Shown piece by piece: positions 41,401 to 47,678 of a DNA stretch of 64,000 nt (within the stretch, counting starts at the first letter, position 1; every line of letters begins with the position of its first letter). The notes under the pieces were generated by a model. That model was not told where the DNA came from. It searched no databases and was given only the letters and a program-made list of their open reading frames with translations. The DNA is taken from IMG/VR virus record IMGVR_UViG_3300029288_000077, positions 1 to 64,000 of that record. The stretch is one strand, 5' to 3'. This stretch comes from a virus. Taxonomy: Duplodnaviria > Caudoviricetes. The position numbers and the translations under genes are program-made.

Positions 41401-43473
41401 CTTTGAAATTGTTAAAATACCCGTTGAGGATAGTGTGTCTGTGGGCATGAGGTGCGCTTTATTTAACACCCCTTTGTTGTATGGTAATTTCACAGGTAAA
41501 TTTGAGAACGAATTGGTGAGGATGTGTAGAAAAAAGGGGAAAGGCGTGCTACAACCATATAGATGCATTGAGTGCATTACAGCCGAAAAAGTGTGTAATA
41601 GTGCATCAGCACTGAGGAACTTGTGATATGTGTCAGCCAAAGTGTGTGGTTGAAAAGGATGAGATCAAGTTTATTGATATGACCCCGGATGATTTATTGC
41701 CAACCAGGATCTTAATAGCCTATCTCAGCAGCACTTATTCAACCTGGGAAACGGAAGGTCTAGATGACAGCCAAAAGAAGATGTATGACATATTGAATCA
41801 AGCACAACTGGAGAGACGAGACATACTGCGCAGCGCGATTGACCTGTTGCATACCTTCCCATTTGGTGTCAAGAAGTGACTATACTACAACTACAAGAGT
41901 TGCACGGTGCGTTACTTGAAGCGTGCATAACTATGAAGCGCGTGTTGTGTGGGGTGAAGTTCGAAGGTGTATTTCAAAATGAAGTATCCAGACCATTGGC
42001 TGCAGTAAGTAAACAATTGTTTGTAGTCAAGAAGCTGATAGAGGAAGCAAATAATGTTGGTGGTAAACAGCAATTTTGAAGAAGTAAAACTGTGTGACAC
42101 GTTTGAGTTGCTGTCAAACGATTTGTGCAGAGTATTTGTTTCCGGGGACACAATTGTTGTTAGGAAGAGAGATGGCATACATATGTTGGATATGTATGTG
42201 GGTGAAATCTTTGTGTGCGGTGTTCATATAAAGATGGTGTCAGGACCAATAGGCGAAACATATGTTGTTTTGTGGAAAGATGAGTGGCCCGATGAAAGTT
42301 TGTTGGGGTGTGTGCTATATAATGATGGTGACAACTTAGATGATCGGTATAAGACAGTGTTGAGGTTGTTGTTTGATGAAGTGAAAGGTGAGTGTGGTGA
42401 GTGCAATGAAACTGCCTGAAATTCTAATAGTATCGGTGCTTGCAGCTCTTGTTGTATTTACTTGTGCGAACATACCTAAGTATGCGCCGCCCGAAATGCC
42501 GAAACCTTCCGAGTGTGAGTTAGTGATTGACAGGATCACTAATTCGTTGAATGAGGCCCGGGACGCACTGAAGACTAGCATCAAAGGAAAGATAGTTCAT
42601 TTCGAAAATAGACTGCTTTCGGTCATGTGCTTGGAGAAGGAGCATGTGGCGGTACATGTCATGCTCGATGCAGTTATCAAGCTGGAAGGTGACAAGGCAC
42701 CACACGTGTGTATCTCTTCGCTGTTTATTATAGAAGGAGAATTTAGTAAAGATGGTGAATTGGACGCAAAATTGTTGGGCGTGTACCCCGGCGAAGAAAC
42801 GATTTGTGAGTACCAGGAAGAGTAGTCGTGCGGAAAAGCAAGGAATTTTATATTGCCAGGACCGCCTCTGTCCGTGAGTTGTATTTACTGGGGGTTGGCG
42901 TTCATCAGATAAAGAAATATCTGAATGTGCCTAATGGTACAAGTGTCAAGAATATGGTTAAGGATTTGGAATACGGATCAGATTTTGATTTGGACGCTGT
43001 TTGTTTATATATTCTTCATAGAGGTGATGTAGTAGAACTGTACTGTAATGAACACAAATCTATAGCGTTTATTGCAAATAAGTATAGTGTAAAAGGTGCT
43101 GTCATAAAGCAGGTGCTCAAAACTGTGGGCGTTGTTATTGACAACCGCAGGCGCATGAGCGAACTAGAAGAAAAGACGCTGTGCGCAGTAAAATTACTTG
43201 GATGGACACCATTTGGTGGTATGTGGTTAATGGGCGCAAACAAAATTAACTGGATAATTCATGAGCACGAAGAAAGAGTGAGCCGCAAAAGAGTAGGTAA
43301 AATAGAACAAAAGAAAATCGAGCAACCAATTAGACCTGAGCTAAGTAAGATCAAGGATGCGGCGCACCAAAATGTGGGTGTGTTTTTGAATGCGCGAGAG
43401 TGTCAAAGGCTGTACCTGATAAACTTGGATTACAGCAAAATATGACCACACATGACCATACGTTGTGGGTATA

Positions 43474-43501
43474 TTTACTCCCTGACGATTGATGGTATAA
43501 T
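43474..43501 (+). promoter_or_regulatory. promoter of the non-coding locus, TTTACT-N16-TATAAT
   Basis: -10 ends a few nt before first stem of structured region. Confidence 0.7.
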
Positions 43502-43905
43502 ACATTTGAAGATAGCAGAGATCATTGGAAATCGGCGGCACTAGAAAAAGCCAAGAAATGGAGGTTAAATATGGACTGGTCGAGTACAAAGCCCTGACCA
43601 AGCTTTGACGTACGGCAGAGCGAGGAAGGGATCTTCAAGCTTGTGTGGTGTGCTGGTCTGGCCAGGCTAACACAGGTGCGAGGAAGAGTATTGGACCGTG
43701 AAAGTACGCCCCCAGGGATGGGACGCCACCCTGGAGTCACGGTTTCCTTGAAATCCAAAATCTAAGAAAGATGGTGCTCCAATGCGCTAGTTTGATTTGA
43801 CACCAAACCGTTTGACATGTGAATGCTGAAAGACGAAAGTGTGATTGAGTATAACAAATTAATGGAGCGCAAATGCTGTGGCGGTATAAATCCGTAAGGC
43901 ACCAT

Positions 43906-44385
43906 GTTCTTTGAAAAGTAATGTTCTTCTAACCAGGTGCGTGTGGCGACCGAAGACTTTTGTTGTTTTCGGTTTTGTGCTAACAGGTATTTGGTTAGAG
44001 GAAAAGGAGGCTGGCTTACGTTGCCGGAAAACTGGCGGGCTAGCACGCTGTGTGGTGGTAGAAATCCACAAGCCTCCTTCGTTCTTTGAAAAGTAATGGC
44101 TGATGTGGTGGAAAACCGCCCCGCGATTGACTGTCGCACATCATTTGATCCTGGGAGGGCTTGATCACCCTCCCCGATAAAATGACTGGTGTGGGGTGCC
44201 TACGTGCTGGGCTCAAACCATCCAATAGTCAAGGAAAGCGAGCACGCGCATCAGCCAGTTCTTTGAAAAGCGGGTGTTGCGATCTTATGTTGATGTGCAC
44301 AGAGACATAAGACAGGCGACTTGCTACTGCCACGGTGGGATGCAAGTGTGGTTCAATTCCACGAACGCCCATTCTGTTCTTTGAA
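43906..44385 (+). repeat. four boxA-like direct repeats GTTCTTTGAA(AAGTAATG)
   Basis: copies at 43906-43923 and 44081-44098 (18/18 identical), 44258-44270, 44376-44385. Confidence 0.9.
44272..44371 (+). ncRNA. tRNA-like element (acceptor stem + T arm, no canonical D/anticodon arms)
   Basis: GGGTGTT/AACGCCC-A and TGTGG-TTCAATT-CCACG. Confidence 0.65.
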
Positions 44386-44810
44386 TTTTTGCGGTTTGGC
44401 TCGTGCTACCGTTCCGTGCAAACCGGTACTGTCTGGTAGAGTCAGGCCACGAGCCAATAATGTTCCCGAACTGCATACCGGCGGTCGTGCAGGCGGTTGG
44501 TGTGTGGTCGGGATCTGGGGGCCTGATTAGCCCCGCCTACTCCAGGGTGCCCTTAAGTGGACGCCTAAGTGGTGCCGCCGCAGTGCGACGCCCGGAGTAG
44601 TTGTCCCACTGCATTGGTAGATGCAGTGTGTTCGTGCCTGTGCTAAAGGACGAACATGGGGAGCCGCCGTCCCCTAGGAGCAAGGAGATGTCCTACCAGA
44701 GCATCGAACGGCACTTTTGGAATCGCTTAGGGCAGCATCCTTGGCACATGGGCCTAACGTCGGATGGCCAACTACGTGCACGGGATGCTGCCCATTGTTG
44801 CAGGTGAAGC

Positions 44811-44948
44811 ATGAAGATCTTGATCCTAGAAGACTCTGCGAACGCTGTTGGGTGGAACAACATCAAGGCGGCGTTGCCCAATGCTATCAAGGCACCCAAT
44901 CTGTGGGAGTACTTTGATGAAGTGTTCAGGATGCTGAAACTGCCGTGA
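44811..44948 (+). CDS. 45-aa ORF, possibly internally deleted receiver-like domain
   Basis: MKILILED fused directly to SANAVG..NIKAAL. Confidence 0.35.
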   Translation: MKILILEDSANAVGWNNIKAALPNAIKAPNLWEYFDEVFRMLKLP

Positions 44949-45761
44949 TAACTTCACCAAATGGGTGGTTGTCACCTGATGGTGTTTTTCATGAATGTGC
45001 ACACGCAAGGCACGCTGATTGTGCCGGGAAAATAGCTAGAAGTCACTTACCAGAAAATGAGCCCATTTTTGACTCAGAAAAGATATTAGAAGAGTGGGGG
45101 TATATTAAGATACTTGACGGCGGGGCATGTGTGGCGTATGCTACTGGCGTGGTACACAAAAGGCCGACGCAAGCACAAATCGATGCGGTGTTCGATTACC
45201 ACCAGAAATGTAGGAAGGAACTTCCATATTGGATTGGAGAGCAGGAATGAAAGTTACTCTTGAAATGGATGAAAACCAAGCACGTATCGTACTGCAGGCT
45301 TTGGACTGTTTGTCAAGATTGTACTCCGGGCAAGTAGATGTAGTCCTGCACACAGTGCTTGTACACAGCAAGCGGTGGAAGGAACTGTGTGAGGTGACTG
45401 GTGGGCATGGTTCTGCTATTGAGTCTATCAGACACCTAGCTTTGTTGATCGGTGAGTTGATGACTGGTTTGCCTAGTGGTACTTTCTGGAGTATTGGTAA
45501 CAGACGAGACATGCATGAAAATGCCCAAACTGCTTGGGACATCAATGAAGTGTTGAGACATGCGCTGGCTTGGTTCAGGAATCCTAAAGGCGGAGCAACT
45601 GTTGACTTTGGCGAGCCAATGCATTGGAATCCAGATCAACCACTCCCCAAAGTAAAAATCGAATGAAGCTGTTGCTGTTGGCATTACTGCTGTTTGTGGT
45701 TCGTTTGCTAATCATTGACAATCATTAATCTACATCATAAATAAATAGAGTATAATGCAAG

Positions 45762-47678
45762 GTGATGGGTGCTGCACTGAATATGAAAGATGGCCTGTTC
45801 CGTGACATAGATAATATCATAAATGGGGAAAGTATAAGTACTTTTACCAGTGTGGTGAATACTGGTTTAGTGACCCTCGAACGCCCACCAAATGAAGTAG
45901 TTTTTATAGAATCACCTAAATTTCTAAATGGCCCAAAGGAGCTGTGGCCAGAACAGTATAGGTTTACAAGAGACTTCTACGAGCTTAGTTGTCCTGTCTG
46001 CAATGACTTGGACAAAATGTACCGTGGTGGTGAAATTAAAAGAGAAGACGATGTACTGTTTGAGTATAATGTGTGTCCAAAATGTGGTGCTAGAAAAGAA
46101 GATGTTGTAGAAGCACTCAATTTTTATTATAGCATTAACGGTGTGGTGGGGATGCGTTCCGGTAAGTCTACTGGCATGGGGTGTTTTTTGGCTGCATTTA
46201 CTGCCGATATTTTGTGTGTACCTGATCTGCACAAAAAGCTGGGTATAGTTGAATCGGATGCTTTGGATGGCACGTTTGTGGCCGCTGCACAAAAGCAAGC
46301 TTCAGATACTATATGGAGCAAATTTAAGGGCATGTATGATAATAGTCCTTGGTTCCAGTACTACAAACATGCTTTGCTTGATATTGAGGTGAACGATAAG
46401 CGGTTTAGGCGCGGTGAGTTGTACTGGGAGACAGACAATCTCATACACTGGCAAGATAAACACATACGGCTTACTGCTGTGCCCACCAACTCAGCTACGC
46501 AGGCTGGACGCACGCGCATTTTTGCGGTGATAGACGAGCTGGCTAGGTTAGACTCAGGAGAAAGCAAGCGGTCTGCATCAGAAGTGTACCGCGTGCTTGA
46601 AAACTCATTGTACACTGTGCGTCAAGCTGTGTCTGAGTTGCGTGCAAAAGGCAATATAGAGATACCAGATGCTGTGATGGCTTCTATATCTTCCCCGTTG
46701 TTTCAAACCGACAAGTCTATGAGTCTGTTGGATGATGCTAAGATCGACAAGCGCATATATGCTTTCAAGAAGGCTACGTGGGAATTCAATCCACACTCCA
46801 AAAAAGAAGATTTTGCTTCATTATACGCACGCGATCCGATAGGCACAGAGCGCGATTTTGGTGCCAACCCGCCTGGAGCCGAAAACCCGTTTATTAAGGA
46901 CCCAAACATAATCAAGGCATGCACGGATTACAAGCGCACCTCGTGTTTTACTCTTAGAGAAAATTACTTTGATCTCAAAGCAGGAACAGAAGGTAATGAA
47001 GCTACATTCCATTTTGTGAAGATGGATATTTTGAATATGTCTTATATGAATTTAGCTGAGTACGTGATACACTGTGACCCAGGCGAAACCGGAGACAGCT
47101 TTTCACTTACACTAGCACACAAACAAGACGGTGTTTGTTGTATAGACGGTTACATAGAAATACGCCCGGTTCCGGAGGGAAGTCAATTTAGTAAAGTACC
47201 TCGTTCCGTACACTTTCCCTCAGTGGTGAATTTGATATTGGCTTTGCACAAAAAGATAAAAATCAGATTGGTGACATACGACAAATGGAATAGTACTGAA
47301 CAAATACACCGCCTCATAGATGCAGGTATTATAGCCATAGGTAAAAACCTGACCAGGGATGATCATCTAAATTTCCTGGAAGGTTTGAATAGTGGTTGGG
47401 TTAGTATGCCTGCACCGGAAGTAGAGGTAGCCGATCCTTCAAATATGAGAAATGTGCCGTGTGCCCAGGCACTGTATGAATTGAGTAAATTAAATGATAA
47501 TGGAGCAAAAGTAGATCACCCACCGTATGGTCACAACGACATTATACAGGGCGGGGTTGGGGTATACCGATCTTTGATGCATCCAGACCTAATACCAATT
47601 GAAAAGAAAAAGACCAAACAAACGTGGCAAAACCGACAGAAAGTGCCGCCAGTTACTTTAACCAGACTTAGACGTTAG
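45762..47678 (+). CDS. terminase large subunit
   Basis: Walker A GMRSGKST, Walker B IFAVIDELA, ISSP coupling motif, nuclease IHCDPG..GDSF, TYDKWNS, DHP..GHNDI. Confidence 0.88.
   Translation: MMGAALNMKDGLFRDIDNIINGESISTFTSVVNTGLVTLERPPNEVVFIESPKFLNGPKELWPEQYRFTRDFYELSCPVCNDLDKMYRGGEIKREDDVLFEYNVCPKCGARKEDVVEALNFYYSINGVVGMRSGKSTGMGCFLAAFTADILCVPDLHKKLGIVESDALDGTFVAAAQKQASDTIWSKFKGMYDNSPWFQYYKHALLDIEVNDKRFRRGELYWETDNLIHWQDKHIRLTAVPTNSATQAGRTRIFAVIDELARLDSGESKRSASEVYRVLENSLYTVRQAVSELRAKGNIEIPDAVMASISSPLFQTDKSMSLLDDAKIDKRIYAFKKATWEFNPHSKKEDFASLYARDPIGTERDFGANPPGAENPFIKDPNIIKACTDYKRTSCFTLRENYFDLKAGTEGNEATFHFVKMDILNMSYMNLAEYVIHCDPGETGDSFSLTLAHKQDGVCCIDGYIEIRPVPEGSQFSKVPRSVHFPSVVNLILALHKKIKIRLVTYDKWNSTEQIHRLIDAGIIAIGKNLTRDDHLNFLEGLNSGWVSMPAPEVEVADPSNMRNVPCAQALYELSKLNDNGAKVDHPPYGHNDIIQGGVGVYRSLMHPDLIPIEKKKTKQTWQNRQKVPPVTLTRLRR

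Follow-up and report, generated by a model that had tools for sequence, protein, structure and literature searches.

A boxA-like element repeated at the boundaries of structured RNA modules in a phage contig

A 10-mer resembling the boxA element of ribosomal RNA (rRNA) operons (rrn) is repeated in a gap between open reading frames (ORFs) of the IMG/VR virus record IMGVR_UViG_3300029288_000077 (Duplodnaviria; Caudoviricetes). The window analyzed here, to which all unprefixed coordinates refer, comprises positions 1–64,000 of that record and corresponds to the first 64 kb of contig C2 (183,765 bp), part of a 1.26 Mb assembly of 10 contigs. C2 is read as a phage genome binned together with a small bacterial genome (G000), because it carries a large terminase gene (45762–47678) whose nearest relatives lie on phage-like contigs of up to ∼184 kb. 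Within a gap of 1365 nucleotides (nt; 43446–44810), which begins after the stop codon (43445) of an ORF of 205 amino acids (aa) and ends before the start codon of a 45 aa ORF (ATG at 44811), the 10-mer GTTCTTTGAA occurs four times on one strand, each time at the boundary between predicted RNA modules. The repetition is genuine, not a product of chance, and the motif very probably serves as a functional RNA signal belonging to the rrn boxA family. Weighing the whole analysis, we favor with moderate confidence the reading that the motif is a reiterated rrn-type boxA, at which Nus factors (NusB-S10/NusE) would load and which would also help to close each module. This reading rests on the unique clustering of the repeat, on where its copies lie with respect to the predicted stems, on the sequence match to rrn boxA, and on a strand-specific association with stable-RNA genes in other viral contigs.

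Exact searching placed GTTCTTTGAA on the + strand at 43906, 44081, 44258, and 44376, with start-to-start spacings of 175, 177, and 118 nt, which confirms the four main copies of the original prediction. Identity extends to the 18-mer GTTCTTTGAAAAGTAATG in copies 1 (43906–43923) and 2 (44081–44098) and to the 13-mer GTTCTTTGAAAAG in copies 1–3 (copy 3, 44258–44270), while copy 4 (44376–44385) is the shortened form GTTCTTTGAA followed by TTTTT. A further, degenerate copy that had been claimed at 43744, TTCCTTGAAA, did not hold up. Two of its ten compared positions are mismatched, matches with a single mismatch already number 12 in the window vs 7.5 expected, and the stretch TTCCTTGAAATCC (43744–43756, + strand) is at chance level and mostly paired in the fold model. 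For the exact motif, composition predicts 0.002 copies on one strand of 1365 nt, where four are found (Poisson P ∼ 1e-12), and no other 10-mer in the contig reaches four spaced copies in any 600-nt stretch. In the remainder of C2, the motif does not occur. The whole assembly holds 12 exact copies on both strands vs ∼4 expected, and the remaining eight lie in ordinary coding-looking sequence and resemble chance matches. By this genome-wide count, a check set beforehand, the motif is not equally frequent in coding DNA. Tandem Repeats Finder (TRF) returned no tandem repeat in the array, and in a MAFFT alignment of the modules the motif is the sole invariant run of at least 10 nt, besides a short T-arm-like similarity. 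An origin by tandem duplication was rejected on the TRF result and because the modules between the copies are non-homologous. Elsewhere in the assembly, other 10-mers recur at least four times within 600 nt only at G000:C1 ∼103600–104040, 541820–542250, and 717150–717310, and these clusters are tandem or interspersed repeats of the bacterial contig.

In rrn operons, boxA is bound by NusB-S10 and nucleates the antitermination complex, whose other members are NusA, NusG, SuhB, and S4. The Escherichia coli boxA reads UGCUCUUUAACA, and the search consensus GYTCTTTAANA was used by Baniulyte et al. (PMC5725501); the motif fits this consensus except for an A-to-G change that is present in non-enteric leaders too. 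Copies 1–3 fit G-Y-T-C-T-T-T-R-A-N-A, and UUCUUUGAA is found in all four copies, with the last position missing from copy 4. The Bacillus subtilis leader boxA AUGAUCUUUGAAA, which binds NusB by nuclear magnetic resonance (PMC13753749), shares with the motif the core UCUUUGAAA of the Gram-positive type. Because NusB-NusE recognition spans only 8 nt of boxA (PMC3177189), the shortened copy 4 could, from its sequence, still be serviceable. Among rrn leaders that were read directly, the 16S leader and spacer of Eubacterium carry GATCTTTGAAAAC, two Saprospiraceae leaders carry GTTCATTGAAAC, and in nine genomes from the genus of the binned host a conserved GTT(A)CTTTGACAA is found in the 23S leader after a boxB-like hairpin. 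Overall, the phage motif falls within this family and is closer to the cross-phylum boxA consensus than to the sites of the putative host itself. The resemblance to boxA of non-enteric bacteria proposed at the outset is thus well supported by the consensus fit, the B. subtilis core, the rrn leaders, and the linkage to viral transfer RNA (tRNA) genes described below. As a separate observation, a conserved CCGCC-loop-GGCGG hairpin followed by a T-rich run, resembling an intrinsic terminator, stands just 5′ of the 23S-leader boxA (L052 1260–1330; nine genus genomes) and could be a boxB analogue or a leader attenuator.

The same motif recurs beside stable-RNA genes in other viral contigs. In IMG/VR, GTTCTTTGAA lies 7–30 nt after the tRNA T-loop word GTTCGAATCC at 111 loci (88 distinct contexts), while at the same spacing the reversed motif is found at one locus and the antisense motif at 11. 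Copies sit 1–17 nt past tRNA 3′ ends and 4–8 nt ahead of the 5′ ends of tRNA and transfer-messenger RNA (tmRNA) genes. A scan of IMG/VR for two motif copies 155–180 nt apart yielded 41 loci, which include tRNA arrays of 148 kb and 208 kb contigs, tmRNA genes, and GOLLD-plus-tmRNA loci; here the motif is co-oriented with the RNA genes and often positioned 4–8 nt upstream of the mature 5′ end. Three large viral contigs have five of six, five of eight, and two of three of their motif copies inside the RNA-gene block. This association with stable-RNA genes is a genuine signal that operates in the RNA. The boxA-led tRNA/tmRNA/GOLLD operons of uncultured phages (L007, L008/L039, L017, L028, L034, L044, L079) share with the present array the 10-mer, its orientation, and its placement a few nt from an acceptor-type closing stem. 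They differ in that their motif mostly heads the block or follows a single tRNA, whereas the array has a copy at every module boundary and is built of modules other than canonical tRNAs. Our literature searches found no paper linking boxA with phage tRNA, tmRNA, or GOLLD genes, and no description of boxA and Nus factors as a standard feature of phage stable-RNA genes.

Several further features were noticed at these and related loci. In the tRNA array of the 148 kb IMG/VR contig (L039 140–180, 1325–1350, and 2270–2295; same in L008), sigma-54-like words of the form TGGCACG-N4-TTGA are located 13–20 nt 5′ of boxA copies or tRNA starts, and Bacteroidota-type TAnnTTTG promoters precede other boxA copies in L039. 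Unannotated, boxA-framed tRNA-like genes that were missed by ARAGORN and Rfam are present at L034 1870–2030 (− strand) and at L039 1195–1325 and 1065–1170; these possess a normal acceptor stem, a class II-type D arm, and a T arm, with 60–90 extra nt in the anticodon/variable region. A recurrent order in IMG/VR consists of a tRNA, a few nt, GTTCTTTGAA, ∼15–20 nt, and the ATG of a small membrane-like ORF starting with MEQILAFVLG (L215, L219, L222, L230, L232, L249, L250, L261, L266, L269, L272, L280, L287). Finally, a Chitinophagales metagenome-assembled genome (MAG) contig displays six tandem 82-nt units directly upstream of an intact tRNA-Thr (L205 707–1216), each composed of GTTCTTTGAAAAGG, ∼12 nt, the tRNA-Thr 5′ half, and a GC hairpin.

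Returning to the array, the + strand of the gap was divided by folding into modules that alternate with the motif copies. U0 (43505–43743), the first structured stretch, has no Rfam match. U1 (43771–43905) is predicted to be closed by an 8-bp stem (43771–43778 with 43898–43905) and displays a T-arm-like hairpin, GCGG-UAUAAAU-CCGU, near its 3′ end. Between copies 1 and 2 lie U2a (43924–44003), a long near-perfect hairpin, and U2b (44004–44080), a tRNA-sized module of 77 nt with a 7-bp acceptor-like stem (GGAGGCU with AGCCUCC) and the T-arm-like GUGG-UAGAAAU-CCAC. U3 (44097–44257) is a multi-hairpin module closed by UGGCUGAUG with CAUCAGCCA. U4 (44272–44370) mimics the top of a tRNA, for which no tRNA call was returned: a T arm (UGUGG-UUCAAUU-CCACG) is stacked in canonical geometry on a 7-bp acceptor stem (GGGUGUU with AACGCCC) that has a discriminator A, and two other hairpins take the place of the D and anticodon arms. 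The GC-richest structured stretch, U5 (44386–44800; one or more modules), reaches a guanine-plus-cytosine (GC) content of 0.60. Fold z-scores are −1.9 for U0, −1.4 for U1, −8.8 for U2a, −2.5 for U2b, −3.6 for U3, −3.4 for U4, and ∼−3 for U5, and since one coding control reached −2.7, values of −1.4 to −3.6 alone prove little. The tRNA-like acceptor/T-arm top appears in three modules of the fold model, canonical in U4 and weaker in U2b and U1, with likeness confined to that half: a full cloverleaf is recognized by neither ARAGORN nor the Rfam tRNA model.

The position of the motif relative to these folds is regular. Each copy starts 0–5 nt past the last paired base of the preceding module, as the original prediction had held for the main copies, and the next closing stem begins 1–5 nt after the motif. 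Because of these short distances on both sides, the motif would constitute essentially the whole inter-module linker in the fold model. All copies fall outside every separately folded module.

Under the favored reading, and by analogy with rrn, each nascent copy would bind host NusB-S10 as it leaves RNA polymerase. Together with NusG and NusA, the boxA complex would convert or re-arm the polymerase into a fast, pause- and termination-resistant form, as for rRNA, and the polymerase so modified would cross the hairpin-rich untranslated template of 1.3 kb. The bound boxA may at the same time act as a tether, keeping the 5′ half of the following closing stem at the RNA exit channel until the 3′ half has come out of the polymerase. 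Such tethering is suggested by the location of each copy 1–5 nt before the next closing stem, together with the model in which boxA tethers the following long-range helix of the 16S leader-trailer (PMC10250234). The modules would then probably be cut out by tRNA-type end-processing enzymes, a mode of release suggested by their tRNA-like tops, with the linker discarded like the boxA of rRNA precursors. As no terminator was found after the array, the modified polymerase may run on into the terminase operon downstream.

Several observations weigh against this reading. In the thermodynamic ensemble calculated for the full transcript, partial pairing between copies 2 and 3 (CUUU with AAAG) lengthens the stem of module 3, and the earlier deduction that each copy is single-stranded because it adjoins a closing stem therefore does not follow; mean unpaired probabilities are 0.54, 0.36, 0.40, and 0.65 for copies 1–4 vs 0.36 region-wide. 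Copy 2 would nevertheless be free for ∼170 nt of synthesis before copy 3 exists. The comparison with the binned host's own rrn boxA, which had been put forward as a check, shows limited identity: the G000 23S leader GTTCTCTGACAAC matches the motif at only 10 of 13 positions, the 16S leader reads GTCATTTGAAAT, and the host is assigned by binning. The enterobacterial boxA GCTCTTTAAC was expected to follow phage tRNAs as well, an expectation that failed, with two loci after GTTCGAATCC in IMG/VR vs seven for the reversed control. Because the enterobacterial form is not enriched, the tRNA-linked signal is specific to the boxA type found here and does not reflect a general rule that phages place the boxA of their host beside tRNAs. 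One loading site is normally thought to be enough, and the need for four copies is unexplained; the complex might be re-armed after each module, or one tether might serve each helix. A terminase related to that of C2 was found in none of 300 other genomes of the order.

Homologous arrays are likewise absent from the phage records, related genomes, and terminase relatives searched. The 1.5 kb region had no blastn match among 50,697 phage records, a search of 60 related genomes returned only the genome itself, and the terminase relatives (45–59% identity; flanks of L049, L050/L051, L333, L334, and L335) showed no boxA array. The single IMG/VR match to the 18-mer (L005) lies in coding sequence and was set aside as a chance match, and motif pairs in bacterial MAG contigs (L195, L199, L201, and L203) proved to be plain tandem repeats of homologous units, unlike the array. 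Two of the terminase relatives contain non-coding gaps of 1.0–1.4 kb where leftward and rightward gene blocks diverge (L334 3086–4455 and L335 3854–4882); these gaps are AT-rich, display several GC hairpins, are without the boxA motif, and may be regulatory or origin regions.

Host assignment comes from binning alone, and every host-based result is conditional on the bin being the host. The binned genome and its relatives are 0.5–1 Mb in size with unlinked, insert-bearing rRNA genes. G000 encodes NusB (C1:302445–302846) and NusG (C1:491193–491495), and no NusB or NusG was found on the phage contig. No Rho RNA-binding domain was found in G000, and Rho was recovered at cutoff in none of 31 genomes of the genus vs 8 of 14 control genomes. 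Protection of a long untranslated transcript from Rho, the first function offered for the repeat, is thus doubtful if the bin is the host. A Rho-less clade that retains NusB and a conserved rrn boxA implies a Rho-independent role there. It is tentatively conceivable that, in such a Rho-less lineage with NusB, NusG, and rrn boxA, the Nus complex would serve mainly as a co-transcriptional clamp for RNA folding, and that the phage would place boxA at the foot of every module so that each tRNA mimic is closed by the tether-and-loop arrangement proposed for 16S and 23S rRNA. If true, the array would offer a miniature, naturally occurring system in which Nus factors assist the formation of long-range helices.

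The rRNA loci of G000 display unusual features of their own. The 16S gene (C1:428217–429964, 1747 nt) and the 23S gene (C1:678254–682496, 4243 nt) are ∼250 kb apart, and each has a separate promoter and leader. Their lengths far exceed those of the models, from which insertions are deduced. On the − strand, ∼900–1300 nt downstream of the 16S gene (L006; G000:C1:426717–431464), three stretches start with GCGCGGTTAGCTC, which corresponds to the 5′ portion of a tRNA. The first and second run on into unrelated sequence, and the third is a complete tRNA gene that has a strong terminator; the arrangement has the appearance of tRNA 5′ fragments repeated ahead of the genuine gene.

Among the alternatives to a Nus-loading site, a processing signal, although unlikely overall, survives best. 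In this reading, an endoribonuclease of host or phage origin would recognize or cleave the motif and thereby release the modules, and the motif would have no role in elongation. That the motif nearly fills the linker and abuts the closing stems fits such a signal, as does its placement at tRNA and tmRNA ends in other viral contigs, where precursor cuts occur, and strand specificity suits any RNA-level signal. Processing is also compatible with boxA, as in rRNA precursors. On the other hand, 13–18 nt are identical here and the sequence equals rrn boxA, whereas the known tRNA-precursor nucleases (RNase P, RNase Z, and RNase E/Y) are not known to need a specific sequence of 10–13 nt. Moreover, RNase E is not universal, rrn boxA is not known to serve as a cleavage signal, and no nuclease candidate was identified among the genes adjoining the array.

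The original prediction also raised a sponge that would dampen host rRNA synthesis, which we regard as improbable. In this case, the abundant transcript or the released linkers would act as decoys that sequester NusB-S10 or another host reader, lowering rRNA synthesis and ribosome assembly. Each transcript would carry four sites behind a near-consensus, extended −10 promoter-like site, and a motif nearer the pan-bacterial boxA consensus than the binned host's sites is what might be expected of a high-affinity competitor. Yet beside ordinary phage tRNA genes the motif mostly numbers one or two copies per locus, which a cis-acting signal fits better.

Still less probable is a site for a phage-encoded protein, acting either as a DNA operator or promoter or at the RNA level. 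The candidate reader is the small regulator-like protein encoded just downstream, a 145 aa ORF ∼850 nt from the array with a weak PHROG match to "transcriptional regulator", and relatives carry a WYL-domain gene directly before the terminase in the same position. These WYL-bearing relatives are nevertheless without the motif array, and the tenfold strand bias relative to tRNA genes favors a role in RNA. For the promoter version, the motif contains TTGAAA, which is similar to a −35 hexamer, and a weak −10 is suitably spaced from one copy. The other three of the four copies have no −10-like partner, and no peak of −10 elements at a fixed distance 3′ of the motif was found in the 88 distinct viral contexts, from which it follows that the motif is not a −35 box. 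Since it also does not recur in the remainder of the 184 kb contig, it is no general phage promoter, and the promoter idea was rejected. Least credible of all is a functionless remnant of the duplications or recombination that built the array from cassettes, for although the 18 nt common to copies 1 and 2 make recent copying possible, the linker is identical between non-homologous modules, recurs beside RNA genes in many unrelated viral contigs, and equals a known functional RNA signal.

The gene context is compatible with a long untranslated leader. Long ORFs of C2 are all on the + strand, while within the gap + strand ORFs are all at most 69 aa and the longest in any frame (125 aa) is on the − strand. 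A Pfam scan of six gap ORFs (61–125 aa) gave no match, and on this result the idea that the gap encodes small proteins was rejected. Its GC content is 0.50–0.60 vs ∼0.42 in the flanks. An Rfam 15 search of the gap, at gathering thresholds and at E up to 10, returned no family at E < 3, GOLLD and ROOL included, and ARAGORN and the Rfam tRNA model (43300–45000, E up to 10) detected no tRNA. Upstream of the modules, a sigma-70-type promoter-like site, TTTACT-16 nt-TGgTATAAT (43474–43501, + strand), matches the consensus at 10 of 12 positions and possesses the TG of an extended −10; from its sequence, an untranslated transcript is presumed to start near 43505. No terminator-like site was found 3′ of the gap. 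The first ORF 3′ of the array, the + strand 45 aa ORF (44811–44948), has AGGTGA 4 nt upstream of its ATG and precedes two further ORFs (101 and 145 aa) and then the large terminase gene. The array may thus be the leader of the terminase operon.

A single metagenome scan produced few useful loci, being dominated by an unrelated dispersed repeat of ∼170 nt that starts and ends with a 12-mer. This repeat is present on >100 short contigs (L075–L194; JGI Ga0209149, Ga0209150, Ga0209339, Ga0209428, and others), starts with GTTCTTTGAAAAGCCCAGTTAAGCTTACATAAC, and ends with GGGGTCCAATAATGG just ahead of the next GTTCTTTGAAAA. It is unrelated to the phage array and may be a mobile element or satellite.

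Both rRNA synthesis and lambda antitermination are textbook settings for boxA and the Nus factors, and the array can be compared with each. Like rrn boxA, the motif has the core UCUUUGA, would belong to an untranslated, highly structured transcript, is present in more than one copy per transcript (leader and spacer in rrn), directly precedes the 5′ strand of a predicted helix that closes over a long range, and is probably discarded on maturation. Unlike the rrn arrangement of two copies >1.5 kb apart, the array packs four copies into 480 nt. It encloses predicted RNA modules of 100–165 nt instead of rRNAs and is phage-borne. Its closing stems of 7–9 bp are too short for an RNase III stalk, and no conserved boxC was seen. 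Outside rrn, boxA is present upstream of suhB, other genes, and CRISPR arrays (PMC5725501; PMC13753749), where the cellular element is likewise reused on another transcript, long untranslated ones included. Those sites are single, at the 5′ end, host-encoded, and Rho-acting, whereas the array is reiterated, phage-borne, and possibly in a Rho-less setting. In lambda nut sites, as would hold for the array under the favored reading, a phage boxA in the phage's own transcript recruits host Nus factors for processivity into downstream genes. The differences are that nut combines boxA with a boxB hairpin read by N, while no boxB-like hairpin is shared after the four array copies; that the lambda boxA is weakened and N-dependent, while the array boxA is near consensus like that of rrn; and that nut sites precede protein-coding operons, while the array copies precede RNA modules. 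No N-like protein was identified at the array, with no search aimed at N-like proteins having been made.

What is new in this array is the reiteration of boxA at every module boundary, the tRNA-mimic modules, and the possibly Rho-less host. It provides an unusually clean case, in which all four sites are identical and each lies at the foot of a small module that folds separately. If the favored reading is true, many phages make non-coding RNAs with the host rRNA transcription machinery, and the chaperone role proposed for the rrn complex would become testable on modules of 100–160 nt in place of whole rRNAs. A candidate host without Rho would further separate that chaperone role from antitermination.

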